This document shows positions 948 to 48,780 of a DNA stretch of 64,000 bases, in pieces (the first letter of the stretch is position 1; each line of letters starts with the position of its first letter). The translations under genes and the position numbers were made by a program. This DNA comes from a marine bacterium B5-7 (GTDB lineage Bacteria; Pseudomonadota; Gammaproteobacteria; Arenicellales; CAJQKF01). The notes beneath the pieces are model-generated. The model worked only from the letters and a program-made list of their open reading frames with translations. It did no database searches and was not told the origin of the DNA. Where the stretch lies: the NCBI GenBank assembly GCA_021604525.1, contig BQJD01000002.1:24282-88281 (forward strand), in the 5' to 3' direction.

Positions 948-2879
948 ATGAATTCACAAAATACAGGATTTCCAGTCAACCTGAAACGCAGCGCTCTTCT
1001 GATTCTCTTGCTCTGTCATTCGGCGACCAGCCAGGCCGAGATTAAGAAAATTCACCTGCCTATCTCGCTTGACAATACCTATTTACAACAAGCTGTACTC
1101 GCCCAAGCTTATACCGAGCCGGACAATAGCGCACGTGTCTGGGACGATGGTAGTGGCTGCAACTTTATGGTGCTGAGGAACCCTGCCTTCGATACCCTCG
1201 ATGGTCGTCTGCGACTGGTCACTGACGGTCAGGTGAGAGTTGGCAAACGATTCGGTGATAGCTGCCTGGTTGCCGTTGACTGGTCGGGAATCATGGAAAC
1301 CTACCAGGAGGTGAGCGTTGACGCGGCCACTTCGACACTGAAGTTTACAGTCATTGATTCGACATTAAGTGACGAGGGCGGTCTGACGGGTACGGTCTGG
1401 GACCTCGCCAAACAATACATGCATCCACGACTCAGTGCCGTGAAAATTGAACTCGGTCATGCCTTTACCGAACTCGGTGAAGTAATCGGTCACGTATTTC
1501 CAGAAGAGCCGGAACGGGTTGCGGCAATTCTTGATACCTTAACCATAGAGTCGGCGCGGGTGGTGGATAACGGGATTGAAGTGCAATTGGCATTCGCTGT
1601 CGATACCACCACGGCAGACACCAACGATATCACTACGCCACAGCCTGCCCTGACAGAAGAGGAAATGAAGCGCTATCAGGAATCGACGCAAAATTTTGAT
1701 AGCTTTCTAACCAACATCATCAAATACATGGCTTTTACCATCAGCGATCCCGCGATTCGACGTGATTTGCTGTATGTGCTTATCGAGGCCCGATATGACA
1801 TCCTGAGAGTCCTGAATGAGCCTTCCAGAACAGGGCTGGTGGATCCGGTGCGTGCACTTTTTGTAAGAACCTGGGCACGACTGTCGCCCATCCTCAGGGA
1901 ACTCGGTCCGGAAGAATCCGGACTGCGCGGTTTTGAATTACTGAGCTTTATAGCCGCAGCCGATGCACTGCACGCACTTGATTCACTCGGTCCTGAACTC
2001 AATCTCGAAATCTCGGCTAATGGCCTGCGTCGGATGGCTCGAATTCTGAACCCCGAAGCAACCGACGATCCGCTGAAATTCGACGAGGCAGTCGATTCCG
2101 ATCTTCGCGATATGTTTGAATTTTCCGCACCACGTCCTCCTGAATCCAACACCAACGAGAGCAATCCCGGTAACGACACGAACGAGAGTCGATACGAGCC
2201 TTCACCGCCATACGCACCGGACGTCGCATCGATACCCCAACGGTTATCGCGGCTCACATTCATTCCTGCCTATGCGGCCAACCCGATTGATAAGTCCATT
2301 TTGAAGCGACTTAACAGTTGGATACCCAAAGACGACGAATTCGAGGAGTACCTGCCGTTGGTACGCGACGTACTTTACCAGGCGGCCGAACAGACATTGG
2401 ATGATTCGAAACTTGAACCCTCCAGGCAAAGAATGTTCGAAACACTGGTACTTGCCACGGCCTGGCAGGAAACCTGCTGGCGTCAGTACACAGTCGTTCA
2501 GCGTCGGCTGGTGCCCATCAAATCTACAGGTGGCGCGCTTGGGATCATGCAGATCCTGCCTTCTGTCTGGCGCGGATTCTACGATCCCAACGGCCTTGCA
2601 TGGGATATCAGTTACAACGCTGCCGCTGGTAGCGAGATCTTGCTGCATTATCTTAAGGACTACGCCATTGCCCGCGGCGAACACGAGGAAAAGGGCGGCG
2701 AAGACAATCTACCGATGGCGACTTACGCAGCTTATAACGGCGGACCCGGGCAACTTGACCGCTATCGCCTCAAGGACACACCCAAGAGCCTGCACAAGAT
2801 TGATGCATCATTCCTTAAAAAATACAGGGCCATTGCCAAAGGCAACGATCTGGCGGTACTTACCTGTTTTACTGGTTGA
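948..2879 (+). CDS. Secreted lytic transglycosylase (C-terminal SLT domain) with a long N-terminal region of unknown function
   Basis: 643-aa ORF with an N-terminal signal peptide (LLILLLCHSATSQA/E). C-terminal SLT motifs: ATAWQETCWRQY, GALGIMQILPSVW, YNAAAGSEILLHYL, AYNGGPG. Confidence 0.8.
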   Translation: MNSQNTGFPVNLKRSALLILLLCHSATSQAEIKKIHLPISLDNTYLQQAVLAQAYTEPDNSARVWDDGSGCNFMVLRNPAFDTLDGRLRLVTDGQVRVGKRFGDSCLVAVDWSGIMETYQEVSVDAATSTLKFTVIDSTLSDEGGLTGTVWDLAKQYMHPRLSAVKIELGHAFTELGEVIGHVFPEEPERVAAILDTLTIESARVVDNGIEVQLAFAVDTTTADTNDITTPQPALTEEEMKRYQESTQNFDSFLTNIIKYMAFTISDPAIRRDLLYVLIEARYDILRVLNEPSRTGLVDPVRALFVRTWARLSPILRELGPEESGLRGFELLSFIAAADALHALDSLGPELNLEISANGLRRMARILNPEATDDPLKFDEAVDSDLRDMFEFSAPRPPESNTNESNPGNDTNESRYEPSPPYAPDVASIPQRLSRLTFIPAYAANPIDKSILKRLNSWIPKDDEFEEYLPLVRDVLYQAAEQTLDDSKLEPSRQRMFETLVLATAWQETCWRQYTVVQRRLVPIKSTGGALGIMQILPSVWRGFYDPNGLAWDISYNAAAGSEILLHYLKDYAIARGEHEEKGGEDNLPMATYAAYNGGPGQLDRYRLKDTPKSLHKIDASFLKKYRAIAKGNDLAVLTCFTG

Positions 2880-3026: not shown

Positions 3027-3665
3027 GCATCATCTGCCTATTCATATGTTGATCATATTCAAGGATTCGCCGCTTCAGCTAGCCGGATCAGGGAATCATC
3101 GTGCCAGGTAGAGTAAAGGTGCTAGTGGATGCGGTAGATTCACAGTTCCTGATCCGCCATACCCCACATACAGTGTCACACATTTATCTGTAGTGAGTTA
3201 ATAACAATAACGAATTGCGGTAGGGCGGCTAATACATGGGGGCATTACAGTATCGACAATACCACCTTACGTGAGCTTGACTTTGCCATTCTCTCATCTG
3301 GATTTCTCGTCTTGTCTGGACTTTACAGGCCCATCAAGAGGAGAAATCATCTTCCGATTATTTTCAATTCCGTGATCGGTAAGATCTCTGTTTTTCGCAC
3401 CGCCATAGGTAGTGTTTTAGCTGTTTGAATTAGTCAAATTCCTCTTCGACTATTGTCTCATGTCCAGCTTTTGCAGAGGTTCCTTAAATGACGAAATCGA
3501 TATCTCACGGGAATTTTCAGTATAATTCCTCCTTTTCCTGGTTTAAACCACAAATTCCCGCGAACTGATTCAGCCTGAGTCGGGAAAACGCTGGGATAAC
3601 TTGAATCGACCAAATCAATCATGCATTTGTATGTGCTTTGATGGATTTTACCAGCGGATCGGAGA

Positions 3666-5660
3666 TTGGAGATGAAAATACTGGCGCGACTTCGACGTTC
3701 AATATTTTTATTTATGGCTTTACTGCCACTGTTCTCCGTGGCCAATGCACAAGTGATAGACGCCGCATTGCAACTCAATGGCGCCACCTATTTCTTTATT
3801 GGCAATGTTTACTTCAGATTGCATGGAAGCCAAGTGGATAAAAACTATCCGTTGGCATTACCCGGAGGCTGGAAGGACCTGCCAAAAAGCTTTCACTCCG
3901 GCATCGATGCGGCGTTTTACCATCCAAAGAAAAAACGATCCTATTTCTTCAAGGGCAATCAATATGTCCGGCTGAATGGAACCAGGGTGGAACCGGGTTA
4001 TCCCAAACCCATCACCCAATGGAAGGGCCTGCCGGATGATTATCGTCAGGGTATCGAGGCAGCGGTGTACCGGGGGGGATACACCTATTTCTTTCGTTCC
4101 GGCAGTTATGTCCGTATCCGAAACACCACGGTGGATTCAGATTATCCGAAGTTGCTTCCCGGCGGATGGAAACTGCGAAAGATCAACTATTCAGGGCTGA
4201 CCGCCATGTTCAATGATCGGGCCAGGAACAAGAATTATATGTTCTTCAAAGATACGTACTGGCAATTGAATGATATCAAGTTGGATGGAGATTTCCGTAA
4301 TATGGCCAACTGGAAGGGTCTGATTGGGGAGGATGAACTCAGGGTCTATGTACAGGTGAATCAAGTTCCGCAATCCATTTGGGAGAACAAGCCCATTATT
4401 GCATCCTGTCACTACTATATTAAAACCCGGGGTGGATCAACAAACAACAAGGACTTCAGAATACCCATTTTTCTGGAGGCCAACTGGATTTACGACGAAT
4501 ATCAAGACGGACTGGAGAATAAAAACAATACCGGAGGTGGATCCGGTGAGCCAAATCCAAGAAAATTCATCGATATTCCCTTACTACATGGCCGATCGTC
4601 TTATCAGGATGTGCAGGGCAAACTGGTTTCAACATTGGCACCCAGCCTACCCGGCTCCTATAAGTACAGATGCCGTATCGGCAGCACGCAGATCAAGCAA
4701 TCGAACAAGAAAGACGATGTTCACGAGACCACGGTTTCGGTAAAGGGAGAGTGGCCAATTAAAAAAGAGGAAATACCGACACCTCTAATCATGTATCCCT
4801 ATCAACCTGCAATGGACATTGATGACACAACGGAAGTCATAGAGATGACCGGTCTGATTGCACCGGATAAAGTGGCCTTATGGGAATTCGCCGCCCAACG
4901 CACCGTGGTTTTCGATGAACGTTGGAATTTCCAGCTACTCAAAAAATCCGGAAGTCAGTACATCCCGGTTTCCACTTATTCCGGCAGTTTTACAAAATCC
5001 CAGATTCTCGATCGGGACTGGTCGTTCAAATCTGCGATTCCCAAAGCACAAGTGGCAATGCTCAGCGCAGGTCAATACAAACTGGAAAGCTGGCTCAGTC
5101 AGGCAGACACGCCAGAGGGGGAAATTTCCGGCCCAAAAACCAGTTTCGAATTCAGAATCAATCGCAAGTTCAAACTATCACCCAACATAACGGCGTTGGA
5201 TGAGTCCGGCGTAAGGCCCATACAGTCGGGCATGGTGTTACTTAATGTACTGGGCAAACCCGACCTGACCGTTCTGAATAAAGTGCACGCAGTGGGAAAG
5301 GACCATAAACCAAACGATATAATTCAATTTACCGATAATGATGCGGTCAATTGGGACAATGGTAGATGTGCCTTACCGATTCAGTTCTTTATCAACAACC
5401 GGGGTTCTACAGATGTTCAAGAGACTTTCAAGACTCGGATATTTATTTCCAACAACAATCGTTCTGTCAGGCAGGTCGGCGGCATCGGGGCAGGAAACAA
5501 CAAGACGATCGAGTCGAAAATCTGGCTCACTCCAGGTGTTGTCACTGAATTCAGCATCGAAGTGGATATCGACAATTCAGTCCAGGAATCATCGGAAAGA
5601 AACAACCAGGCGCACTTTAAAGGGATGGTATCCGGCGATTGCAGCGATCGGGTGCAATAG
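3666..5660 (+). CDS. Secreted hemopexin-like repeat protein (4 blades) with an uncharacterised beta-rich middle region and a C-terminal CARDB-like domain
   Basis: 664-aa ORF with signal peptide MEMKILARLRRSIFLFMALLPLFSVANA/Q. Four ~48-aa repeats (aa ~31-224) fit the hemopexin pattern IDAA..(x)YFF.G..Y.R......(D/G)YP..I/L..W.GLP. The C-terminus reads PDLTV...FFINNRGSTDV...IEVDIDNSVQESSERNN, which is CARDB-like. Confidence 0.7.
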   Translation: MEMKILARLRRSIFLFMALLPLFSVANAQVIDAALQLNGATYFFIGNVYFRLHGSQVDKNYPLALPGGWKDLPKSFHSGIDAAFYHPKKKRSYFFKGNQYVRLNGTRVEPGYPKPITQWKGLPDDYRQGIEAAVYRGGYTYFFRSGSYVRIRNTTVDSDYPKLLPGGWKLRKINYSGLTAMFNDRARNKNYMFFKDTYWQLNDIKLDGDFRNMANWKGLIGEDELRVYVQVNQVPQSIWENKPIIASCHYYIKTRGGSTNNKDFRIPIFLEANWIYDEYQDGLENKNNTGGGSGEPNPRKFIDIPLLHGRSSYQDVQGKLVSTLAPSLPGSYKYRCRIGSTQIKQSNKKDDVHETTVSVKGEWPIKKEEIPTPLIMYPYQPAMDIDDTTEVIEMTGLIAPDKVALWEFAAQRTVVFDERWNFQLLKKSGSQYIPVSTYSGSFTKSQILDRDWSFKSAIPKAQVAMLSAGQYKLESWLSQADTPEGEISGPKTSFEFRINRKFKLSPNITALDESGVRPIQSGMVLLNVLGKPDLTVLNKVHAVGKDHKPNDIIQFTDNDAVNWDNGRCALPIQFFINNRGSTDVQETFKTRIFISNNNRSVRQVGGIGAGNNKTIESKIWLTPGVVTEFSIEVDIDNSVQESSERNNQAHFKGMVSGDCSDRVQ

Positions 5661-6293: not shown

Positions 6294-6342
6294 GCTGGAG
6301 CGGGTGATGGGAATCGAACCCACGTTAAGAGCTTGGGAAGCT
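6294..6342 (-). repeat. 49-bp direct repeat, proximal copy (inside the intact tRNA-Gly plus 2 bp beyond its CCA end)
   Basis: Identical to 2978-3026. Confidence 0.9.
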
Positions 6343-6369
6343 CCCGTTCTACCATTGAACTACACCCGC
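6296..6369 (-). tRNA. tRNA-Gly (anticodon CCC), CCA encoded
   Basis: The reverse complement folds as a cloverleaf. Acceptor GCGGGTG/CACCCGC, D arm GTTC-AATGGTA-GAAC, anticodon arm GGAGC-TTCCCAA-GCTCT, variable TAAC, T arm GTGGG-TTCGATT-CCCAT, discriminator T, CCA. Length 74 nt. Confidence 0.9.
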
Positions 6370-30105: not shown

Positions 30106-31788
30106 ATGAGCGACAGTGAAGCCGCGCCCACCAATTTCATCCGCCAGCGGGTCGCTGCCGACCTGTCCGGAGCACGGGTTAGCGAGGTCGTCACCCGGTT
30201 TCCGCCCGAACCCAACGGATATTTGCACATTGGCCATGCCAAGAGCATTTGTCTGAATTTCGGCATCGCGGACGACTTTGATGGACGATGTTTTTTAAGA
30301 TTCGACGACACCAACCCTGAAAAAGAAGAGATGGAATTCGTCGAATCCATCCAACGGGACGTCCGCTGGCTCGGATTCAACTGGCAGGACCGACTGACGC
30401 ATGCCTCCGACTACTTCGAACGGCTTTACGAGTTCGCTATGGAGCTGGTGCTCAACAGCAACGCCTATGTCTGCAGCCTGAGTGCCGAAGAGATTCGCGA
30501 AAGCCGCGGAACCTTGACGGAACCCGGTAAAGAAAGTCCTTTCCGCAACCGGTCTGTTGAAGAAAATATCGATCTCTTCAATCGTATGCGCGAAGGTGAA
30601 TTCGCCGATGGTGAACATGTTTTAAGGGCTCGAATCGACATGACTTCGGGTAATCTCAACATGCGCGACCCGGTGCTTTATCGTATACGCCACCAGGTTC
30701 ACCAGATCACCGGCGATCGCTGGTGCATCTACCCGCTGTACGATTTCACTCACTGCATCAGCGACGCCATCGAAGGCGTTACCCATTCGCTGTGTACCCT
30801 TGAGTTCGAAGATCATCGGCCTCTGTACGATTGGGTACTCGATAACACCAGCGTTAGCTGCCACCCGCAGCAAATAGAATTCTCGCGGCTGGCTCTGGAC
30901 TATACGGTGATGAGCAAGCGCATGCTGACCCAACTGGTGCGCGAAAATCATGTCAGCACCTGGGACGATCCGCGAATGCCAACCATTGCGGGACTGCGAC
31001 GACGTGGCTATACCCCCGCATCCATTCGATTATTTTGCGAACGCATCGGCGTGACCAAGAAAGATAATCGCATTGAAATGTCGCTGCTCGAGAACTGTGT
31101 GCGTGAAGATCTTGAATCGAGCGCGCCGCGTCGAATGGCGGTCATTGATCCACTCAAAGTGGTTATCAACAATTACCCCGAAGATCTGGAAGAAACCTTC
31201 AGTGCCGCCAATCATCCGGCAGACGCCGGTTTCGGCACGCGCGAGGTACCATTCGCAAAGGAGATTTATATCGAGCGAAGCGATTTCATGATCGATCCAC
31301 CCCGTAAATTCTTCCGCTTGGGTCCTGGGCGCGAAGTCCGCCTTCGTTATGCTTATCTTGTGACATGCACCGGCTACGATACCGACGATAATGGTGATGT
31401 AACCACCGTTTATTGCGATTACGATAATCAATCACACGGGGGCAACGCACCGGACGGGCGCAAGGTCAAGGGCACCATACACTGGGTAAGCGCAAAACAT
31501 GCAATTCCAGCAGAGGTGAGGTTGTATGACAGACTGTTCATGCGCGAGAATCCGGTGGAATCAAAGCAGCATCACTTCAGCGAATTCATTAATCCGGATT
31601 CTTTGATCACCGTGACAAATGCAATGCTTGAGCCGGCTCTTGCAAGTGCCGAAAACGAGTCACGATTTCAGTTCGAGCGACTCGGCTACTTCTGCGTAGA
31701 CGAGGACAGCACGGCGGGACAACCTGTGTTCAACCGCACCGTCACCCTGCGGGATTCATGGGCCAAACAACGAGGACAGGGTTCTTGA
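30106..31788 (+). CDS. glnS: Glutamine--tRNA ligase
   Basis: 560 aa. HIGH region [21 protein letters not shown]-type VMSKR, and overall GlnRS-like sequence. Confidence 0.95.
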
Positions 31789-32219
31789 AAAAGCGTACCG
31801 GTGATCCGTGGATGTCGGCCGACGACTTCGGTCGCTCGCTCACCGGGGTCGGCTTCAATTTACTGGTAGCCAATGTGGAACGCGCCATCGAATTTCAGCG
31901 TAATGTGCTTGGCGTTACCGTCATTTATCAGGACACCGATTTCGCCGTCGTTGAGAATGACGCTGGCCTGTACATGCTGCACGCCGACCATACATACCGC
32001 GACCATCCGATGGTCGGGATAGCGACAAACGCCGAGGGCCGTGGCGCGGGTATTGAGCTTCGATTGTATAATCTTGATCCCGATACCGTTGAAGCGCGCG
32101 CGAACGATGCCGGCTATACAATACTGGCGGGTAGCGCAGACAAGCCGCACGGCCTCAGAGAGTCGTATATTATAGACGACGATGGCTATGTCTGGGTGCC
32201 TTGTGTACCATTGCTATAG
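31785..32219 (+). CDS. VOC/glyoxalase-family protein
   Basis: Has a glyoxalase-like beta-alpha-beta-beta-beta pattern ([21 protein letters not shown]...; [16 protein letters not shown]). The start is uncertain: TTG 31785 overlaps the glnS stop (TTGA), with an alternative ATG at 31812. Confidence 0.6.
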
Positions 32220-32399: not shown

Positions 32400-32750
32400 G
32401 TGGCCAGCGATTCACTCAAGAGACTGACTTCGAATAACCAGCTTTGCAAACATCTTTACGTCGATGAATCCAGGCTCCATGGCTATGGACTTTTCGCGCG
32501 AAGGAAATTAAAGCGTGGTGAATACATTGGTACGTATGACGGACCAAAAACCAAACGCAATGATATTCATGTATTGTGGGTTGAGGATAAGCCGGGCAAG
32601 TGGTGCGGACGGGACGGTACTAATCTGTTACGTTATCTGAATCACAGCCACAAACCCAATTGCGAATTTGACGGTTTCGATCTCTATACGCTTTGCAAAA
32701 TCAAGGAAACCGAAGAACTGGTGTTCGACTACGGTGAAGATCCTGCCTGA
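32400..32750 (+). CDS. Minimal SET-domain protein (putative protein-lysine methyltransferase)
   Basis: 116 aa with a GTG start behind AAGGAAGG. Motifs GYGLFARRKLKRGEYIGTYDG, NHSHKPNCEF (the NHSCxPN motif) and ELVFDYG (the ELxFDY motif). Confidence 0.75.
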   Translation: MASDSLKRLTSNNQLCKHLYVDESRLHGYGLFARRKLKRGEYIGTYDGPKTKRNDIHVLWVEDKPGKWCGRDGTNLLRYLNHSHKPNCEFDGFDLYTLCKIKETEELVFDYGEDPA

Positions 32751-32853: not shown

Positions 32854-35073
32854 TTATTCCTTGAAAAAGCCGGCCAGTGGCGCAGGTACGCCAATGAGAT
32901 TACCCTGAATCATATTCACACCGAGATCGATGAGACAATCGCGGGTCGACTCGCGCTCGACATGTTCAGCGATAGTTCGCTTCTTGAGCTTGCGGGCAAG
33001 ACTGATGATTGAATCGACGATGGCGAGCTTGATCTCGTCATCCTCAAGATCCTTAACCAACGAGCCGTCAATTTTAAGAACGTCCGCCGGTATCTGTTTC
33101 AGGTACGCATAAGACGACAGTCCGGAACCGAAATCGTCGAGCGCAACTGTACAGCCCAATTCCCGCATGGCACTGAAAAACTGCGCTGCTTTTTCTATAT
33201 TGCCGATGGCTGCGGTTTCGGTTACCTCGAAACACAGTAACGTTGGTGAAATCGAATAATAACGCAGCCGTTCCAGCACGTGGTTGAAGAACGAACCATG
33301 TGACAGCGATTGACCTGACAGATTGATACTGAAGGTATGCGAGGTGCCATTACTGATCCCATAGTCAGCAAGAATCTTGAACGCATGCTCTATAACCCAG
33401 GTATCGAGCCGCAAGCCGTAGTGGAACTCCTCGACCGCGGATATCATCATGCTGTTAGGGACATAACTGCCATCTGACCTGCGCATCCTCAATAGCAACT
33501 CAAGGGATTCGCGATGACTCATCGCATTATCAGCGGCAACAATTTCCTGACCAAAGAATTCAAACAGATCACTGTCCAGTGCTTTCTGGATTCGCGACGC
33601 CCAGCGCGCTTCGCCGTAGTGTCGTTCGACCACTTCATCGTCAGGCTTAAACAGATAAACGCTGTTGCCGCCTATTTGCTTGGCGCTATAGCAGGCTGCG
33701 TCGGCTTGGGTCATCACTTCGGTCACACCGTATGCACCACTGAGTATGGGAACGATGCCGATACTGGTTGTAACACCCAAACGCTCACCGTCGACATCCA
33801 GGCGAAACTTTTCAATTGCAACACGGATACGTTCTGCCAGCGAACGAGCTTCACCGGCCTTCATGCGCCTTAAGAAAAGCGCAAACTCATCACCGCCAAC
33901 ACGGGCGACGATATCCGACGGTCCGAGCAGTGAACTCAGACGGCGGGCAAATGCACATAGAAAGCGATCACCGGTAACGTGACCGCGTGTATCGTTAATA
34001 ACTCGAAATTGATCGATATCGAGCAAACACAGAGTATGCTCGGCACCGCTCTTGGCGCCTTCCTCTATCGCCTCATCCAGACGCTTCATCAGCTCAACGC
34101 GACTGACCAAACCGGTTAATTCATCGTGACCACTCAGATAAGCAAGACGTTCCGCCAACTCATAGGATTCAGTGACGTCTTCACCCGCCAGAAGCAGCCG
34201 CAGCTCGCCGTCCGGCTGACGCAGGGCTCGACCACTGACACGTATCCAGACATGCTCGCCAGAACGAGTATTTAGTAACAGTTCCTGACGCTGTACGGTG
34301 TCTTCGTTACAGCACAAAGATTGAATCAGGTCGCCAAGTTTTCGTCGCTGGTTGGAATGCAACAACTGCAGCACCGGTTGATCGATCAGCTCATCACTGT
34401 TCCAGCCAAGATACTCAGCACCGTAACGGTTAATAGATAGCAGGTCGCCAGCCTCATTCAATGTCATGAAGAACGATGGCGTATCGTTGTAAAAGGAGCT
34501 GTAGCGATGCTCGCTGACACGCAGATTTTCCAGACTGGATTCGAGAACCCGGCCCTGCTCAGCAAGCTGACGGGTACGAAATTCAACCTTTTGTTCAAGC
34601 GTATCGCGCATCTGCTGGATCTGATCCGCCAGCCTTTTGCGATCGAGATGTCGATTGAGTCGGGCGAGTAATATTGGAAAGTTGATTGGCTTGGAGAGGA
34701 AGTCTGTCGCACCCATATCGAGGGTTGCAACGGTATCGCTCAAGGTATCCTTGACGGTCAACATTATGACCGGTAACTCGATTTCATCCCAGCGCTGGCG
34801 AATCCGCCGTAGAGTTTCGAGTCCATCTATGCCGGGCATTATGATGTCCAGCAACACCACATCCGGGCGCCGACTTTCAATCATTGATAACGCGCTGAGA
34901 CCGTCGGCGGCTTCGTAGACACGGAACTCGGAATCCTCGAGAACCGAACGCACCAGAGATCGCGTTGTTGGCCGATCATCGACAATCAGTACCGCAGGAC
35001 GGACCTGCACTACCGGCTTTAGCTCATGTACGGTATCGGTTGTCACTTTTTTATCCCCGAAAAACCTTCCCAA
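32854..35073 (-). CDS. Response regulator with REC-PAS-GGDEF-EAL architecture (c-di-GMP turnover output)
   Basis: 739 aa. REC (VLIVDD...VVLLDIIMPGIDG), coiled linker, PAS (SFFMTLNEAGDLLSINRYGAEYLGW), intact GGDEF (RVGGDEFALF), and EAL domain motifs (FEVTE, DDFGSGLSSYAYLK, KIDGSLV, AEHVE, QG). The start codon is uncertain. Confidence 0.85.
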   Translation of the reverse strand: MGRFFGDKKVTTDTVHELKPVVQVRPAVLIVDDRPTTRSLVRSVLEDSEFRVYEAADGLSALSMIESRRPDVVLLDIIMPGIDGLETLRRIRQRWDEIELPVIMLTVKDTLSDTVATLDMGATDFLSKPINFPILLARLNRHLDRKRLADQIQQMRDTLEQKVEFRTRQLAEQGRVLESSLENLRVSEHRYSSFYNDTPSFFMTLNEAGDLLSINRYGAEYLGWNSDELIDQPVLQLLHSNQRRKLGDLIQSLCCNEDTVQRQELLLNTRSGEHVWIRVSGRALRQPDGELRLLLAGEDVTESYELAERLAYLSGHDELTGLVSRVELMKRLDEAIEEGAKSGAEHTLCLLDIDQFRVINDTRGHVTGDRFLCAFARRLSSLLGPSDIVARVGGDEFALFLRRMKAGEARSLAERIRVAIEKFRLDVDGERLGVTTSIGIVPILSGAYGVTEVMTQADAACYSAKQIGGNSVYLFKPDDEVVERHYGEARWASRIQKALDSDLFEFFGQEIVAADNAMSHRESLELLLRMRRSDGSYVPNSMMISAVEEFHYGLRLDTWVIEHAFKILADYGISNGTSHTFSINLSGQSLSHGSFFNHVLERLRYYSISPTLLCFEVTETAAIGNIEKAAQFFSAMRELGCTVALDDFGSGLSSYAYLKQIPADVLKIDGSLVKDLEDDEIKLAIVDSIISLARKLKKRTIAEHVERESTRDCLIDLGVNMIQGNLIGVPAPLAGFFKE

Positions 35074-35133
35074 GACGTGTTGTAACCATGCACATCAAAA
35101 GCATCCGGAAGGAAGTATACCGCTACAACAGCT

Positions 35134-35220
35134 AACGTGCAGAACTATCGCACGTTGCACCGAAACAATCCTGTTTGGGTACAACGTCCGGCGTAACGTC
35201 GAGTCATCATCGACGTTACG
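35134..35220 (-). other. Two perfect stem-loops in the spacer between the rpfF-like gene and the REC-PAS-GGDEF-EAL gene
   Basis: aacgtgc-N9-gcacgtt (35134-35156) and cgtaacgtcga-N7-tcgacgttacg (35192-35220). Neither is followed by a U-run on the minus strand. Confidence 0.6.
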
Positions 35221-35381
35221 GTAATGAGGCGATAACGTTCGGCAGGTTGCCGTGTAACTTTATACCAGGGCAGACACAAGATAAGTAACCGATTAGCGTT
35301 GCGCTATGAACTTGTACACACATTGTTTGATTCTGCTTACATCATCATAGTGTGTCGCGATCAAAGCTGAACATACGCTTG

Positions 35382-36320
35382 CTAGAAGCCTCGATCTATT
35401 TGCGAACGAATTAGGTAACGCATGTGATTCAGATCTTTCTCTTCAAGTGACATTGCCGCATCGACCCATGTTTCAACGAAACGCACCAGGCTGTCCCGCG
35501 AGATGGGATGCTCGTTTTGCACTGCACGTCGAAACGAATTCGCCGCTCTCGAATGATTCCGTTCACGGCGAATTATTTTACGAACCTCCTGTTCACCCTT
35601 ACCGCTATCGGCAAGGTAATCGATCACTCCCATCTCATATAGTTCGGATGCGTCATACAGCTTGCCGCTCAAGATCAATCGCTCGGCAGCGGATGCCGAC
35701 ATGCGGCGAGTTAGAAACTGGTAGGCACCCATTCCCGGGAACATGTTAAACAGCACTTCCGGAAGTCCCATTCGCACATGTCTTTCAGCAACAATAATAC
35801 TTGCTGAAAGCGCTGCCTCCATACCACCGCCAAGTGCATTGCCTTTAACCAGCGCAACCGTTGTCATCGGCAACTCGAATGCAGTCGAATTCTCATACAC
35901 CAGGTCAACGCAGTCTTCTGCATAGCGTGAGAGCGACTCGCGATCACCTTCCTTTATCATTCGATAGAAGTAGGCAAGATCGCCACCAAGGTTAAATATT
36001 CCGTCAATATCGGACGTCAGAACGTGATACCGAGGCACTTCATTTTCTCGTCCGCTGGCAATAAGATTTCTCATCTTCAGCGAAAAATCGCTCTGGAAGC
36101 GTCGCAAACTGGTTACCACTTCCGGTGTGAATTTGGCAGGGCAGTCGGATCTCAACCTCCACCAGTGAATGCCAGTTTCCGCTTCAATCTCGGAATCATA
36201 GAATGTCGGAGCCTGACGGTCTTCCAGACGAGCGGATGAGTTAAGAAGATGGACGGTATTGTTGGTCGGGCTGTCGGCATATTCGCTTTCAGCATTGTGT
36301 TCACGGACATTAAGCATCAT
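35382..36320 (-). CDS. rpfF: RpfF-like crotonase (DSF-family cis-2-enoyl fatty-acid signal synthase homologue)
   Basis: 312 aa. It aligns by eye over ~200 aa with Xanthomonas RpfF as I remember it: SDIDGIFNLGGDLAYFYRMIKEGDR, VKGNALGGGMEAALS, RMGLPEVLFNMFPGMGAYQF, TWVDAAMSLEEKDL. Glu168 and Glu188 are 20 residues apart, like the catalytic pair of RpfF. Confidence 0.8.
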   Translation of the reverse strand: MMLNVREHNAESEYADSPTNNTVHLLNSSARLEDRQAPTFYDSEIEAETGIHWWRLRSDCPAKFTPEVVTSLRRFQSDFSLKMRNLIASGRENEVPRYHVLTSDIDGIFNLGGDLAYFYRMIKEGDRESLSRYAEDCVDLVYENSTAFELPMTTVALVKGNALGGGMEAALSASIIVAERHVRMGLPEVLFNMFPGMGAYQFLTRRMSASAAERLILSGKLYDASELYEMGVIDYLADSGKGEQEVRKIIRRERNHSRAANSFRRAVQNEHPISRDSLVRFVETWVDAAMSLEEKDLNHMRYLIRSQIDRGF

Positions 36321-36641
36321 TGTTATTCACCTCATTACATTAAAACGATATCAGCGGTAAGTAGCCTGATAAAAAAAGGAAAATTCCATTTCCTTCAACG
36401 CTAGCTTACTCTATTATCAGTTTAAAAACGTAGTTTCAAGACAACGACAATGGATTGCTTGTTGTGATTACACAGAGCCACTGAAGTGATTTATCATTGC
36501 GCGTCTTAAAAGCGCTCGCTCTTGTTGTAAGCCGATTGAATAAACAGGCTTATCAGCTACCGACACGCAAACTGAAACTGTGACGGCGCTTGACCAAAGA
36601 CTGGTCTTATTGAATAACCACATCCACAAGGATCGACATTG

Positions 36642-36929
36642 ATGCAAAAGTTTGACGTCAGGAATGCAACACCGAAAATTATCCGTGAACATGTCATCGA
36701 ATTGATATCCGAGGTATCCGGATTGTCTGTCGACGAACTCGAACCCGGCATGTCCGTCGCCGAAGACATCGCACCGAACTCCATCGATAGAATTACACTA
36801 TTCATGGCACTTGAAGACGAGTTCAACGAATCCATACCTGAAAGCGAAGTGCGCGACATCATCACATTGAAACAACTCCTCGACTTCGTCGAACTCCGTG
36901 TCATAAGCCTGCGTAACGCCAGCGCCTGA
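36642..36929 (+). CDS. Dedicated acyl carrier protein
   Basis: ~95 aa. VAEDIAPNSIDRITLFMALEDEFNESIPESEV aligns with the AcpP helix II region [32 protein letters not shown], with the Ser of NSID at the phosphopantetheine site. Confidence 0.8.
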   Translation: MQKFDVRNATPKIIREHVIELISEVSGLSVDELEPGMSVAEDIAPNSIDRITLFMALEDEFNESIPESEVRDIITLKQLLDFVELRVISLRNASA

Positions 36930-36996
36930 AACGTCATCGGCATCTGAATACAGCTTCACAAGCCGACCATCAAAGTAGTGGCTTGAATCACGTACC

Positions 36997-38391
36997 GTGG
37001 CAATAGTGAATAAAACTAACGATCCTGTTGTTGTCAGCGGGGTAGGCATCATCTGCGCTCTCGGTCAAGGTGCAAAGCAAGTCTGGAAGGCCATGCTCGA
37101 TGGTCGCTCGGTGTGTGAACCCATACCGCAGCAATGGCATTACTATGGCGATTATCGATCGACCCTGTGGTCGCCGTTGCCAGACATCGATTACACATGT
37201 TATGGATTGAACCGCGCCGATATGATGCGTTTCGACCCGGTAGCCATGATGGCTATCGGCACGGTTCAGGAAGCCCTTGAACATGCCGGGTTCAAGCTTG
37301 AACCAAAAGATTCGAGGGGCTCGCGGCTCCAAATTGCCAACACCAACCCGGCGCGCACGGGGGTTTACTTCGGAACAGGAATAGGCGGCATCAATACCAC
37401 GCTGTCAACACATTCATATCATTCGATGAACCGCATTCGCAATTCTCTTGACTCTGTCGCTAATAACACCAATCAGGATGACGACAAAAAGCTAAAAGTT
37501 GCTATTGAACATATCTCCCTCGCCCGCCGCTTTAATCCACTTGCCGTAACTCTGTTGATGTCCAATGCGGTCGCTGCAGCGCCGGGTGTCAGGTTCGGCA
37601 TAACCGGCCCTTGTAAAACTACAACCGTTGCCTGCGCCTCGGGCACAGCAAGTGTGGCAGAAGGCTTTAGGGCAATACACGATGGCCGAGTCGATCTGGC
37701 GATTGTTGGTGCCAGCGAGTATTTGTTCGATGACTACGGTTCGATTTTTCGTGCCTATGACATTACTGCCGCAATGACGCACGGTATCGACGATCCGCAT
37801 CGTGCTAACCGGCCATTCGACGAAGACCGACGCGGCTTCCTGTTCAGCGAAGGGGGTGCCGCAGCGCTGGTACTTGAACGTGCATCCAGTGCGATATCGC
37901 GAGGTGTTCAGCCACTGGCCGAATTGATAGCCGCTCATGAATCATTTGACGGCTACAACATGCTCGCCATGGAGCCATCCGGTGAGTCAATGGAGAGAAT
38001 GATTCGTGACACAATCGCTGCCGGCGGTATCAAGGCTACAGACCTTGATTACGTTAATGCTCATGGTACCGGTACCGAAATGAATGACGCTATCGAAACC
38101 GAAGTACTCGCTCGCGTGGTTTCAAAAGACACATTAATCAACTCCAGCAAAGGTCTTATCGGTCACACAATCGGCGCCAGCGGGGCTATCGAAGCAGCAG
38201 TAACCGCGCTCAGTATCCGCGACCAACGGGTTCATCCATGTCTGAACCTCGATAATCCCCTTCGAGAACTTAATTTTCCCCGCCAGGCAACGAATGCAAG
38301 GATCGACTACGCACTCAGCCAGTCGTTTGCATTCGGCGGTCATAATGCCTGCCTGTTGATGAAACAATTGCCGAATAACCAGAATTCCTGA
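36997..38391 (+). CDS. Beta-ketoacyl-ACP synthase, elongating KAS I/II (FabF/FabB-like), Cys-His-His triad
   Basis: 464 aa. Motifs VVVSGVGIICALG, active-site TTVACASG, YVNAHGTGT, SSKGLIGHTIGASG, FAFGGHNACLL. It is longer than FabF before the active-site Cys, with an insertion around NSLDSVANNTNQDDDKKLKVAIEH. Confidence 0.85.
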   Translation: MAIVNKTNDPVVVSGVGIICALGQGAKQVWKAMLDGRSVCEPIPQQWHYYGDYRSTLWSPLPDIDYTCYGLNRADMMRFDPVAMMAIGTVQEALEHAGFKLEPKDSRGSRLQIANTNPARTGVYFGTGIGGINTTLSTHSYHSMNRIRNSLDSVANNTNQDDDKKLKVAIEHISLARRFNPLAVTLLMSNAVAAAPGVRFGITGPCKTTTVACASGTASVAEGFRAIHDGRVDLAIVGASEYLFDDYGSIFRAYDITAAMTHGIDDPHRANRPFDEDRRGFLFSEGGAAALVLERASSAISRGVQPLAELIAAHESFDGYNMLAMEPSGESMERMIRDTIAAGGIKATDLDYVNAHGTGTEMNDAIETEVLARVVSKDTLINSSKGLIGHTIGASGAIEAAVTALSIRDQRVHPCLNLDNPLRELNFPRQATNARIDYALSQSFAFGGHNACLLMKQLPNNQNS

Positions 38392-38556
38392 ATGTAATTG
38401 TTTTACCGTTCGTCGGCCACAGGTTTGACCTGATGGCCATTTGTCATTAATGTTCAACGTATTACGGTAAAGTTTAAGTAATTTTCGCGTGCTAGCCGAT
38501 CGCGCAGCCATAGGAGTGCAACATTATCGTTCGCCTCGAAAAACGTTTTACGGCTC

Positions 38557-40716
38557 GTGAGTCGCCAATGCGATAACATGAATATACTCACCCATTCCAC
38601 GCTCCGTGCCGTGTCACAACTGGTTAACCGGTTTCAATTGGCAGCGAGCAAAAATCTTGCCGAATTGGAGCAGGCAGTACTACGTCTTGTTGTCGGCGGG
38701 ATAATACTTGGCTGGGTCTTTTCTCACGGTCTGGTCGATCAGCTTCAGGACCGCCTGGCAGCAAGTGCCTTTCTCATTGTCGCAACCGGCATATTGATTT
38801 CCCTGCTGCTACAACCGGCGGCCAGTCATGCACGGCGGGTTCTTGCCATTGTTCTTGATATGGCATGCATCACCTACGCCATGCATATAAGCGGACGTCT
38901 CGGCGCACCGGTATTTTTCGCATTTATTTTCGTCACTATCGGCAACGGTTTCAGATTCGGCAATCCATTTCTATTCGTTGCTCTGGCTCTCGGACTGGCA
39001 GGGTTTTCCGTGGTGGTATGGTTTGGCGATTACTGGCGAGCCAATCTGCCCTTTGTCGCAGGCGTTGCCGTCAGCATGCTGATTATTCCCCTGTATGCGG
39101 CAAAATTAATATCGCGCCTGGCCGAAGCGCGTCAGCGTGCAGAACAGGCCAATATCGCCAAAAGTAATTTTGTCGCCAACATGAGTCACGAAATTCGAAC
39201 ACCACTTAATGGTGTCATTGGATTAAGTGACCTCCTGAATAGTACACGGCTCGACAAGGAACAGCAGGAACTCGTCAGCACCATTCAAACATCGGCACAT
39301 ACATTGTTGTACCTGGTTAACGACATACTCGATTTTTCCAAGATTGAAGCGGGCCTCGCCAACAGTGTTAAACGGGAATTCGATCTACGTGCACTGGTAT
39401 CGACTACCAGTCAGATGCTGCGTCCCCAGGCTACCGAAAAGGAAGTTATTCTTAAAAGTAATATCGATTCGACGATACCGGAGTATCTGATAGGTGACGA
39501 CGATCACCTTCGGCAGGTATTGGTTAATCTGATTGGTAATGCCATCAAGTTCACTGACGAGGGTGAAGTTGAAGTACGCGTCATGCGTGAAAGCGGCGAA
39601 GATTTAGAACGGATTCGTTTTGAAGTGATCGACACCGGCATTGGTATTGCCCAGATCGATCAACAGCGCATTTTCGAAAGCTTCCAGCAAGTCGATAACT
39701 CAATGGCGCGTCGTTTTGAGGGAACCGGCCTTGGGGTCACCATCTCCAAACAACTGATCGAACTCATGGGGGGCTTACTGCATCTGCAAAGCTCTCCTGG
39801 CCATGGATCAAGATTCTGGTTCACCCTTGAGTTTGACGAATGTGCAGGTGAGGTTACAGAGCGTGCAGCCAGCAAGAGTGGCAACGTCGTTTTATTTAAT
39901 CGACCCCCATCGCAAAGCGGCAAAGGTAAATCACTAACGATTCTGGTGGCCGAAGATAATGCGGTGAATCGGAAAGTAACATCGATGATCCTTGAGAACG
40001 CCGGACATCAAGTGCAAATGGTATCTAACGGTGCCCAGGCGCTCGAGGCACTTGAGATTCGCGAATACGATCTTGCCATAGTCGATATGCACATGCCGGT
40101 CATGGGCGGTCTGGACGCTATCAAGAATTACCGGATGGTTAATCATATGAAGCGGCGGCTGGTGCCATTTCTGGTGCTGACTGCAAACGCCACCGTCGAT
40201 GCGCGACAGATGTGCCATGATGCCGGGGCGGATGCCTTTCTCACCAAGCCGGTGGATTCCGCATTACTGCTCGATCACGTCATGCAATTGTCAGGATTGT
40301 CCGGTAACGATAGTCGCGGCACAGCCCGGTCCGGGGTTAACCTTGATGAGATTTTCGATCCTGATGTATTAATGGAGCTCGATGCAATTCGCAAGCGACC
40401 GGAGGCTTTGCGCGAACTGATCAACCTGTTTCGCACCGACGCCAGCGAATTGCTGCATCGTCTTCAAGATTCCGTCAGGCGTGGCAGCATTCAGGATTTC
40501 AAGGAAGAGGCCCACGCTTTAAAAGGCAGTGCCGCCAATGTTGGGGCCAATCGAATCGCACAGTGCTGTAACCAGGCTGGCGCCATCAAGCCCGGTGAGC
40601 TAAGTCAACGAGGGCCGGAAATACTCGAGACTCTCGGTAACGAATTTACCCGCTTCGAAACCACCTTCAAAGAATACTTCGAACAAGAAATCGAAGGACG
40701 TCATCTACCCAATTGA
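38557..40716 (+). CDS. Hybrid sensor histidine kinase with RpfC-like architecture: 5-6 TM sensor, HisKA/HATPase, REC, HPt
   Basis: 719 aa. The N-terminal ~190 aa consist of closely spaced hydrophobic helices with short loops. H-box [11 protein letters not shown], ATPase motifs ([18 protein letters not shown]), REC (ILVAEDN...LAIVDMHMP), HPt ([14 protein letters not shown]). The start is GTG 38557 or ATG 38578. Confidence 0.85.
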
Positions 40717-47253: not shown

Positions 47254-48780
47254 ATGAAGACACTCCGGGTCATTCTTGTCAAACCAAGCAAGTATGCCAG
47301 GGACGGTGCCGTTGAACGGTTTGATCGGGGCTTTATGCCAAACGCAAGCCTCTACCATATCGCATCCCTGACCCCCACTGATATCGACGCAACCCGCATC
47401 GAGTTGCACACCGTGGATGAGTACGTCCGTGCCAATCTTGACTACCTGAAACTGCTATACAAAACTCCCGGCGCAACCACCCTGCTGGCATTTGTGGGTG
47501 TGCAATCGCATCAGTTTCACCGGGCGCTGGATCTGGCCGCCTTCGCCCGCCGTAACGGCGTCGAGCATTGCATTATTGGTGGACCCCATGCGATGACCTG
47601 CGATACTCGCGAAATGCAGGGTCGGGGCATCAGTTTCGCCTTGGGTGAAGCGGAAGTGGTCTGGCACGAAGTATTGTCAGATGCTGCCCGTGGACAGCTA
47701 AAAGACGTCTATAGCTCGGGTCTACGCTGGCAAAAACAACTCGACGGCGCAGTAGTCACACCGCCGAATATTGATGAACTCAATCGCTATGTTTTGCCCA
47801 TGCTTGGTTTGTACCCTGTTCGCGGTTGCCCCTACCGTTGCAACTACTGTTCAGTTGTAAAGATTGCCGGCCATCCGGTGCGCAGTACGGCGATTGAAAC
47901 CACTATGGAGAGCCTGCGCCGCGCTCGTGATGGCGGTGTGCGCTATATCGCCTTCGTGTCGGATAACTTCAACAAGTATCCCCAGGTGGCCGAACTACTC
48001 GAAGCCATGATCGATGCCAACCTTGGTCTGCGCTTTTTCTGCCAGTGCGATACCCATGTCGTCAACCAGCCGGAACTGTTCGATTTACTCAGGCGAGCCA
48101 ACTGTTTCGAGATGTTTATCGGTGTGGAATCATTTAATCGCGAAACCCTGAAGGCGGCAAACAAGTTTCACAACTACCCGAAAAAATATCAAACACTGGC
48201 GGCACTGTGTCGCGACAACGGAATACGCGCGCACTTCTCAAATATCATAGGATTTCCCGAAGATTCCAGGCAAAGCATTCGCGGCGGCCTCGAAATTCTC
48301 AAGGGCTTGAATCCGCAAGTGGCATCGTTCTACGTGCTGACGCCGATTCCCGGCACCGAGCAATACGACGACTACCGGGCCCGCGACCTGATCACCGAAA
48401 CGAATCTGGATCGCTTCGATACGACCTGCTCGGTATGGCGTCATCCGAGCATGTCAGCGAACGAGCTGGAAGACATGTTGTACGAGTGCTATATCGATTA
48501 CTATCGCCACTTGATGCACCAGAAGAACACGGTGGATGAATTTCCCGAATTCACCGTGTTCTGTCGTTACGTCGCCTCACAGCGAATTCATCCCATGGCA
48601 GGCGGTACCGGACGACTCGTTCTTGATCAGGTAAGCGACTACATCGACCTGCGGAAAAATCTCTACGGCTTCGAGCACGCCAGCCTGCCGGACAGCCTCG
48701 GCTTGTCTCCGGAAGATGAATCGTTTAATCGCAGCAGCGATTGGCGCAAGTCCGATAGCAGCGCTGTGGCCACCATCTGA
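47254..48780 (+). CDS. B12-binding-domain radical SAM protein
   Basis: 508 aa. The N-terminal Rossmann-like B12-binding region (LRVILVKPS..., FVGVQSHQF, IIGGPHAM) is followed by the CxxxCxxC cluster GCPYRCNYCS. Confidence 0.75.
   Translation: MKTLRVILVKPSKYARDGAVERFDRGFMPNASLYHIASLTPTDIDATRIELHTVDEYVRANLDYLKLLYKTPGATTLLAFVGVQSHQFHRALDLAAFARRNGVEHCIIGGPHAMTCDTREMQGRGISFALGEAEVVWHEVLSDAARGQLKDVYSSGLRWQKQLDGAVVTPPNIDELNRYVLPMLGLYPVRGCPYRCNYCSVVKIAGHPVRSTAIETTMESLRRARDGGVRYIAFVSDNFNKYPQVAELLEAMIDANLGLRFFCQCDTHVVNQPELFDLLRRANCFEMFIGVESFNRETLKAANKFHNYPKKYQTLAALCRDNGIRAHFSNIIGFPEDSRQSIRGGLEILKGLNPQVASFYVLTPIPGTEQYDDYRARDLITETNLDRFDTTCSVWRHPSMSANELEDMLYECYIDYYRHLMHQKNTVDEFPEFTVFCRYVASQRIHPMAGGTGRLVLDQVSDYIDLRKNLYGFEHASLPDSLGLSPEDESFNRSSDWRKSDSSAVATI

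Follow-up and report, generated by a model that had tools for sequence, protein, structure and literature searches.

A probable DSF-type signalling locus with a private acyl carrier protein and ketosynthase in a marine gammaproteobacterium

Diffusible signal factor (DSF) signalling is known almost entirely from Xanthomonas, Xylella, Stenotrophomonas and Burkholderia, where the synthase RpfF takes 3-hydroxyacyl chains bound to acyl carrier protein (ACP) from housekeeping fatty-acid synthesis (FAS) and the FAS primers set the structure of the signal. In rhizobia, NodF and NodE form a stand-alone pair of an ACP and a KAS II-type ketosynthase (KS) with no other FAS genes; the pair is presumed to borrow FabD and FabG, diverts chains to a special alpha,beta-unsaturated product and feeds the Nod-factor acyltransferase. 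The beta-branching cassettes of polyketide synthases (PKS) combine an ACP, a decarboxylating KS, an HMG synthase and the enoyl-CoA hydratase (ECH) proteins ECH1/ECH2. Here we describe a locus on contig BQJD01000002.1 of marine bacterium B5-7, within a 64,000-nt stretch (the window, on which all coordinates are counted), that places an RpfF-type crotonase and an RpfC-type hybrid kinase beside an ACP, a KS and a REC-PAS-GGDEF-EAL response regulator. The locus probably encodes a DSF-family (RpfF/RpfC) signalling system of the quorum-sensing type, with signal synthesis shifted to a private carrier protein.

Components of the locus

The evidence for this reading consists of homology, intact catalytic and phospho-acceptor residues, and conserved linkage. 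A preliminary description of the same DNA had proposed an RpfF/RpfC-type locus with a dedicated ACP and KS, and with a REC-PAS-GGDEF-EAL protein in place of RpfB and RpfG, and the three lines of evidence agree with that proposal. ORF (open reading frame) calls and Pfam/NCBIfam profile searches both recovered the five genes with the domains and positions it had given them. They are listed here with the intergenic region and a radical S-adenosylmethionine (SAM) gene:

32854-35073, minus strand: REC-PAS-GGDEF-EAL response regulator, 739 aa (Pfam/NCBIfam domains)
35382-36320, minus strand: RpfF-type crotonase, 312 aa (ECH_1/ECH_2)
36321-36638: intergenic (promoter) region from which the crotonase and ACP operons diverge, 318 bp between starts
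36639-36929, plus strand: private ACP, 96 aa (PP-binding; Ser48 in NSID)
36997-38391, plus strand: FabF-like KS, 464 aa (ketoacyl-synt N- and C-terminal domains)
38557-40716, plus strand: RpfC-type hybrid kinase, 719 aa (HisKA-HATPase-REC-Hpt)
47254-48780, plus strand: radical SAM protein, possibly of the B12-binding type, 508 aa (Radical_SAM, 81.6 bits)

The crotonase can be assigned to the RpfF type and is predicted to be the dehydratase/thioesterase that releases the signal. Against solved structures it scored 182.4 bits with 7zq7 and 180.6 bits with 3m6m, both Xanthomonas-type RpfF, versus 148 bits with Burkholderia/Cronobacter-type RpfF and 60 bits with the best ordinary crotonase in the PDB. 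This is in line with the block-by-block likeness to Xanthomonas RpfF claimed earlier, for which all four quoted motifs were present in the translation. The protein passed the NCBIfam model NF006452 (314.7 bits, cut-off 177) and scored no more than 73 bits on every NCBIfam hydratase model, and many of its homologues are labelled 'DSF synthase' by JGI. An alignment to 3m6m, with the 16-residue tag allowed for, confirmed that E168 and E188 correspond to the catalytic Glu141/Glu161 pair of RpfF from Xanthomonas campestris (Xcc). Residues M197, W285, L163, G164, G165, G112 and L303 likewise matched Xcc M170, W258, L136, G137, G138, G85 and L276, the seven pocket residues that are listed with the catalytic glutamates in PMC9864630. 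Both glutamates were invariant in 16 members of the crotonase subfamily. Neighbour-joining (NJ) trees of 89-97 family members placed the window crotonase within the RpfF/RpfC-type radiation, with Xcc RpfF nested in the family and Burkholderia-type RpfF as the outgroup. One point named beforehand as able to refute the reading was whether the crotonase belongs with the DSF synthases or with beta-oxidation or PKS ECH enzymes, and the PDB scores, NCBIfam models and NJ trees all grouped it with the DSF synthases. Only two weak positions, 56 and 140, separated the crotonases linked to ACP and KS genes from the canonical ones.

The ACP matched PP-binding (PF00550) at 28 bits and AcpP-type models at 42-44 bits, under the cut-offs of the latter. 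Its ORF opens with a TTG at 36639, and an ATG follows at 36642. Ser48 aligns with the serine of the AcpP DSLD motif, the phosphopantetheine site, and helix II is acidic (MALEDEF), which makes it compatible with docking of FAS enzymes; the pI of the protein is 4.4. In the KS, Cys213, His356, His390 and Lys385 were invariant in 23 homologues, and the intact Cys-His-His triad and lysine predict an active, decarboxylating, elongating enzyme. A dedicated ACP and an elongating KS beside synthase and sensor, as first described, are thus borne out by the KS triad and the ACP serine. The KS scored 297 bits on the fabF model, under the equivalog cut-off of 494, and is therefore not the housekeeping FabF. 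Its subfamily, of ~454 aa, is distinct and has two insertions when compared with KS of 405 aa. The AlphaFold model (pLDDT 84) had a FabF fold (Foldseek TM-score 0.88) with a helical, low-confidence insert at 130-190, and the AlphaFold/Foldseek analysis gave no functional clue from the insert beyond the FabF fold. The variant is abundant in environmental data, with at least 120 clusters of KS relatives at 43-61% identity, and these were RpfF-linked in every context checked. A metagenome contig scan with the KS alignment returned mostly housekeeping FabF at ~30% identity with generic patterns and no useful contexts. We also observed that the NCBI record gives the KS as 432 aa from a start that drops the N-terminal strand VVVSGVG; as this strand is found in all homologues, the GTG start at 36997 (464 aa) fits better.

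The kinase is assigned to the RpfC type. Between residues 40 and 182 its N-terminus showed five to six peaks of hydrophobicity, separated by short loops, so that the RpfC layout previously ascribed to it was found again: five to six transmembrane (TM) segments without a large periplasmic domain, followed by HisKA/HATPase, REC and HPt. The phosphorelay residues H211, D510 and H653 were present, and the best REC-only PDB match of its REC domain was the RpfC REC 3m6m_D (95 bits). For comparison, a genome scan yielded >571 RpfF-like loci, of which 80 species-representative loci were analysed; individual loci carry L numbers below. In 66/80 of them, a hybrid kinase beside the RpfF-like gene had an N-terminal domain homologous (60-110 bits) to residues 1-190 of the window kinase. 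A separate homologue search with the N-terminal 197 aa gave five matches, one of them a weak hit that JGI names RpfC (E 1.7e-9) on a fragmented and uninformative contig, L086. Alignment of 67 kinases of the sensor family revealed, between TM4 and TM5, the motif GNGFR[YF]G (GNGFRFG in the window); it was ~99% conserved, and we know of no description of it. Just before TM1 the same alignment gave the family consensus R-P-D-S-E-H-E-Q. Cai et al. (PMC5391125) showed that Xcc RpfC cannot do without R15, D17, S18, E19 and Q22 in DSF binding; positions 16 and 21 are Ala. The consensus, matched by motif only, agrees with all five essential residues. The window kinase has K32-N-L-A-E36-L-E-Q39 at this place (window 38650-38675), keeping the Glu and the Gln and replacing the Arg by Lys.

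The response regulator has a complete REC domain (D32, D76, T106, K128; 112.7 bits), a GGDEF motif at 393 without the RxxD I-site, and all EAL-domain motifs (ELL525, EVTE, DDFGSG, KID and QG). Its best solved match was PA0861/RbdA. The preferred reading makes it the target of the phosphorelay, standing in for RpfG, and not an RpfR-type receptor. The absence of RpfB and of an HD-GYP RpfG, remarked on at the outset, holds within the window: no AMP-binding ligase was found among the scanned ORFs of at least 200 aa, and no HD-GYP protein was found anywhere in the window, the HD-GYP query matching the REC part only. The window also contained no second ACP, KS or crotonase.

Conservation, variants and genomic surroundings

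The locus is a conserved system. Eleven contexts with ACP and KS genes were reached through crotonase or KS homologues (L001, L003, L004, L087-L089 and L170-L174), and crotonase, ACP, KS and an RpfC-like kinase occurred together in all 11 of these independent contigs, with the ACP adjoining the crotonase every time. The exact five-gene divergent layout was found in L001, L004, L170, L171 and L172, at crotonase identities from 67% to 46%. In L173, L174 and L024 the crotonase is again divergent from ACP-KS, and the kinase faces the KS in the opposite orientation. In L087-L089 the order is radical SAM-ACP-KS-crotonase, convergent with the kinase and a REC-HD-GYP gene behind it, which places ACP-KS inside a canonical rpfF/rpfC/rpfG cluster and ties the module directly to classical Rpf signalling. 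The persistence of linkage across such varied gene orders indicates one functional unit under selection and not chance inheritance. Synteny in relatives, whose absence the preliminary description had named as refuting its claim, holds down to ~45% identity for the locus, with the core in 11/11 contexts. KS genes were found in only 6/80 species-representative loci, making this a minority variant among RpfF-like loci. The sensor-domain kinase in 66/80 loci and REC-HD-GYP in 29/80 mark the wider set as the canonical rpfFCG family.

The output is a variable part. Orthologues of the output gene occupied the equivalent position in L001, L004, L170, L171, L172 and L006 (39-77% identity) and were missing from L003, L173, L174 and L087-L089; the existence of loci without it indicates that this protein is not part of the core. 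Across the 80 loci, REC-GGDEF-EAL proteins occurred in 26 and REC-HD-GYP (RpfG) in 29, with both in four. In ~17 loci, mainly alphaproteobacterial, a REC-PAS-GGDEF-EAL gene directly follows the kinase at the place of RpfG. The swap of HD-GYP for a REC-GGDEF-EAL output is thus common in the RpfF/RpfC family. When this output was singled out earlier as a non-canonical substitute for RpfG, the architecture was right, but such outputs are too common (26/80) to set the locus apart, and the ACP and KS are its truly unusual part.

Several layouts among these loci deserve mention in their own right. In apparently alphaproteobacterial loci (Stappia, Pseudovibrio, Aureimonas and Rhizobium sp.; among them L010, L012, L013, L017, L019, L032, L035, L050, L062, L068, L070 and L072), the usual arrangement is rpfF convergent with rpfC, then REC-PAS-GGDEF-EAL, and no description of this rpfF-rpfC-[REC-PAS-GGDEF-EAL] layout was found in the literature searched. 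Two cyclic di-GMP (c-di-GMP) outputs may exist in four Methylophaga loci (L023, L031, L042, L075), which encode both a REC-HD-GYP protein after the kinase and, upstream of the crotonase, a large GGDEF-EAL protein. L003, on a 3.4-Mb genome and without the GGDEF-EAL gene, encodes a stand-alone 109-aa HPt protein (3499-3828) just past the kinase and an aminotransferase after the crotonase.

On balance, we take the radical SAM protein to be a probable sixth component, an accessory tailoring enzyme that the preliminary description had overlooked. It was 59-60% identical over its full length to the radical SAM proteins adjoining ACP-KS-crotonase in L087, L088, L089 and L171; the truncated one beside these genes in L009 shared 55% identity with it. 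Between the window and those loci, identity was lower for the KS (47%) and for the crotonase (43-46%). With 187 representatives out of 1.84 billion at E<=1e-30, the family is narrow. The protein has the motif CPYRCNYC and sub-threshold matches to the class-B families PhpK, HpnJ, TIGR04072 ('lipid biosynthesis') and BchE. Its matches to B12-dependent radical SAM families span residues 81-380, reaching into the N-terminal domain, and all lie far under the cut-offs; no Pfam B12-binding match was found in the protein.

A second ACP-KS variant was seen beside RpfF-like crotonases, with a KS of ~405 aa and a methyltransferase of the CMAS/cyclopropane-fatty-acid-synthase type, which suggests methylated or cyclopropanated signals. 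It was found at:

L046, 8360-11060
L061, 5137-7659
L064, 4745-7511

Enzymes of methyl transfer, either putative B12-type radical SAM or CMAS-type, recur around the ACP-KS module. In L007 (50-4086), from a metagenome-assembled genome of Ectothiorhodospiraceae, ACP-KS is followed by an MMPL/RND-type transporter, with no kinase there; the transporter may export the product.

The locus is set in ordinary chromosome: one flank carries EF-G, two c-type cytochromes, glnS and a SET-domain gene, and the other carries YcgN, an MFS transporter, SohB and panC. The small SET-domain gene (32400-32750, plus strand) and a 153-aa ORF of no assigned family (31758-32219, plus strand) lie between glnS and the locus. 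The pair is kept in L001, L004 and L170, which indicates that the whole region has been vertically inherited in the lineage. Alignment of the divergent intergenic region with four orthologous regions revealed no conserved operator motif, and promoter and terminator scans gave matches at or below shuffled-sequence expectation. Elsewhere in the window, a 664-aa protein at 3666-5660 (plus strand) combines a strong hemopexin-repeat match (E 1e-32) with a CARDB domain; to our knowledge, hemopexin repeats are uncommon in bacteria. The sole family match of a 643-aa ORF at 948-2879 (plus strand) was a weak C-terminal SLT transglycosylase domain. A tRNA-Gly(CCC) at 6296-6369 (minus strand) was the only RNA gene in the window by ARAGORN and Rfam.

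Proposed pathway and alternatives

In what follows, the substrates, the product, the borrowed FabD and FabG steps, the role of the radical SAM protein, the ligand and the direction in which c-di-GMP turnover changes are those we infer from these genes. Housekeeping enzymes would prime the private ACP (ACP') at Ser48 and load it with malonate, and the KS (Cys213/His356/His390) would join a fatty-acyl primer to malonyl-ACP' in a condensation that yields 3-oxoacyl-ACP'. This would be reduced to 3-hydroxyacyl-ACP' by a FabG-type housekeeping reductase, and the putatively B12-type radical SAM protein would perhaps modify the chain, for example by C-methylation. The crotonase (E168/E188) would dehydrate the chain to a cis-2-enoyl thioester and hydrolyse it to a free fatty-acid signal, which would act on the membrane sensor of the kinase. 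Phosphate would pass from H211 to D510 to H653 and on to D76 of the REC-PAS-GGDEF-EAL protein, changing c-di-GMP turnover, most likely by EAL phosphodiesterase activity as with RpfG. Tethering to the private ACP would fix which chain is presented to the synthase. It would also keep the RpfF thioesterase off housekeeping acyl-ACPs, which would explain the missing RpfB and offers a reason why RpfB could be dispensable; in Xcc, RpfB is required to counteract the RpfF thioesterase (Bi et al. 2014, cited through PMC9864630).

An ACP, a KS and tailoring enzymes of its own imply that the system would select and modify its chains on the private carrier, and predict new signal chemistries. We put forward tentatively, as possible rather than probable, the broader idea that ACP-KS-RpfF with variable tailoring enzymes is a carrier-protein assembly line for structurally new DSF-family signals, insulated from bulk FAS, with a sensor motif that co-evolved, and that it constitutes a widespread unrecognised dialect in marine and sediment bacteria. 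Candidates would be signals such as C-methylated or cyclopropanated 2-enoic acids. The locus is a compact, testable gene set for heterologous signal production.

A number of observations weigh against a DSF-family system with private-carrier synthesis. The crotonase is only 40% identical to Xcc RpfF, and its 216.4 bits on the RpfF equivalog model NF053515 do not reach the cut-off of 550. Fifteen ACP/KS-linked crotonases, including that of the window, formed one NJ clade, with weak support (40/100 bootstraps), and the ACP/KS-linked crotonases of L087-L089 and L061/L064 fell outside it. Genes for a reductase, a malonyl transferase and a phosphopantetheinyl transferase are missing from the locus, so these activities are assumed to be borrowed. 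The kinase gene is co-directional with ACP-KS and divergent from the crotonase instead of convergent with rpfF, and no rpfG follows it. The homology of its sensor to Xcc RpfC rests on the residues named in PMC5391125 and is hence indirect. The radical SAM gene lies 6.5 kb from the kinase gene and is not adjacent, and none was seen within 7-10 kb in L003, L170, L172, L173 or L174. Finally, the equivalents of D17 and S18 in the window kinase are replaced by L34 and A35. This loss of Asp and Ser is common to the nearest relatives (L001, L170, L003), while other ACP-KS loci retain the full motif, and it means that the ligand or its binding mode may differ in the window kinase; the altered motif is the one feature that hints at a changed ligand.

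One alternative explanation keeps the signalling system and changes the released molecule to something other than a simple cis-2-enoic acid. The crotonase might mainly hydrolyse 3-oxo- or 3-hydroxyacyl-ACP', giving a beta-keto acid (and then a methyl ketone) or a 3-hydroxy acid, or the KS and crotonase might iterate without enoyl reduction, like NodF/NodE, giving a polyunsaturated acid. The direct product of the KS would be 3-oxoacyl and the locus encodes no reductase, the sensor lacks the D17/S18 equivalents that Xcc RpfC needs for DSF, and chemical diversification is evident in related loci that add a B12-type radical SAM enzyme or a CMAS-type methyltransferase. However, the dehydration glutamates are invariant across the crotonase subfamily, the RpfF pocket residues are all kept, and other ACP-KS loci carry the full RxDSExxQ sensor motif. 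We regard this explanation as unlikely.

Perception could instead resemble that of RpfR, with the PAS domain of the output protein binding the fatty acid in the cytoplasm and also regulating the crotonase, and with the kinase as an accessory like BCAM0227 of Burkholderia. The preliminary description had likened the output protein to RpfR, and the order PAS-GGDEF-EAL is indeed that of RpfR; moreover, directly downstream of the crotonase comes the output gene, and the two probably share an operon, an arrangement found in six loci. The likeness does not extend to the N-terminus, which is a complete REC with its phospho-acceptor residues where RpfR would have the RpfF-interaction domain, and membership of the RpfR family was rejected on that ground. 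The best solved match is PA0861, and no RpfR was among the solved-structure matches at the 1e-20 cut-off. The loci without the output protein nevertheless keep ACP-KS-crotonase-kinase, making the kinase the constant partner, and RpfR-like perception is very unlikely.

We see the slimmest chance for an explanation without any cell-cell signal, in which the cell itself would use a specialised lipid or small metabolite made by the crotonase, ACP and KS (with or without the radical SAM protein), and the two-component genes would regulate the pathway or merely neighbour it. Pairs of an ACP and a KS that come with tailoring enzymes are a typical feature of pathways for lipids and secondary metabolites, some variants include MMPL and methyltransferase genes, and RpfF is described as affecting membrane lipid homeostasis in Xanthomonas (PMC8659556). 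Yet the RpfC-type kinase is the most constant neighbour, present in 66/80 loci and 11/11 ACP-KS contexts in varied orders, the crotonase retains the residues of a releasing DSF synthase, and the consensus of the kinase family is the DSF-binding sensor motif of Xcc. A PKS beta-branching cassette was rejected because the locus lacks an HMG synthase, the KS retains its Cys and the crotonase belongs to the RpfF type.

Comparison with described systems

In the full-text literature searched, in which few subscription journals were covered, no ACP, KS or radical SAM genes were described as linked to rpfF, and the Leptospirillum rpf papers report rpfFCG only, with no mention of ACP, KS or radical SAM. 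The earlier statement that no system of this composition has been described thus stands within that literature.

The Rpf system of Xcc is close in its core. Both have an RpfF-type crotonase with equal catalytic and pocket residues, a multi-TM HisKA-HATPase-REC-HPt kinase (719 aa in the window, ~726 aa for Xcc RpfC) whose REC is nearest the RpfC REC, and a REC-fused c-di-GMP enzyme as output. The window locus differs in its private ACP and KS, where Xcc draws directly on FAS acyl-ACP, in the absence of RpfB, in having REC-PAS-GGDEF-EAL for REC-HD-GYP, and in its probable radical SAM accessory. Its kinase gene is also co-directional with ACP-KS, and the kinase has lost the D17/S18 equivalents.

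The RpfF-RpfR systems of Burkholderia and Cronobacter share with the window a PAS-GGDEF-EAL protein beside an RpfF-type synthase and a c-di-GMP output. In contrast to RpfR, which has an N-terminal RpfF-interaction domain and a PAS domain that binds BDSF (the Burkholderia DSF), the output protein of the window carries a REC domain and has a membrane kinase dedicated to it, and the window crotonase scores higher with Xcc RpfF (180 bits) than with the type that partners RpfR (148 bits). The rpfF-rpfC-[REC-PAS-GGDEF-EAL] loci, mainly of Alphaproteobacteria, have the same output architecture, with an identical domain order in L010, but no ACP or KS; their kinase is convergent with rpfF, and their outputs are 28-30% identical to that of the window.

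Compared by description only, NodF/NodE are likewise an ACP and KS pair without other FAS genes; the window locus differs in the crotonase thioesterase downstream and in a KS of its own ~454-aa subfamily. PKS beta-branching cassettes also work on carrier-bound chains with an ACP, a KS and crotonase-fold enzymes, whereas the window locus has no HMG synthase, keeps the KS Cys and has a crotonase of the RpfF and not the ECH1/ECH2 type. All proteins of the locus belong to families already known, and its signalling follows the Rpf logic; what is new is the variant equipped with its own ACP and KS.

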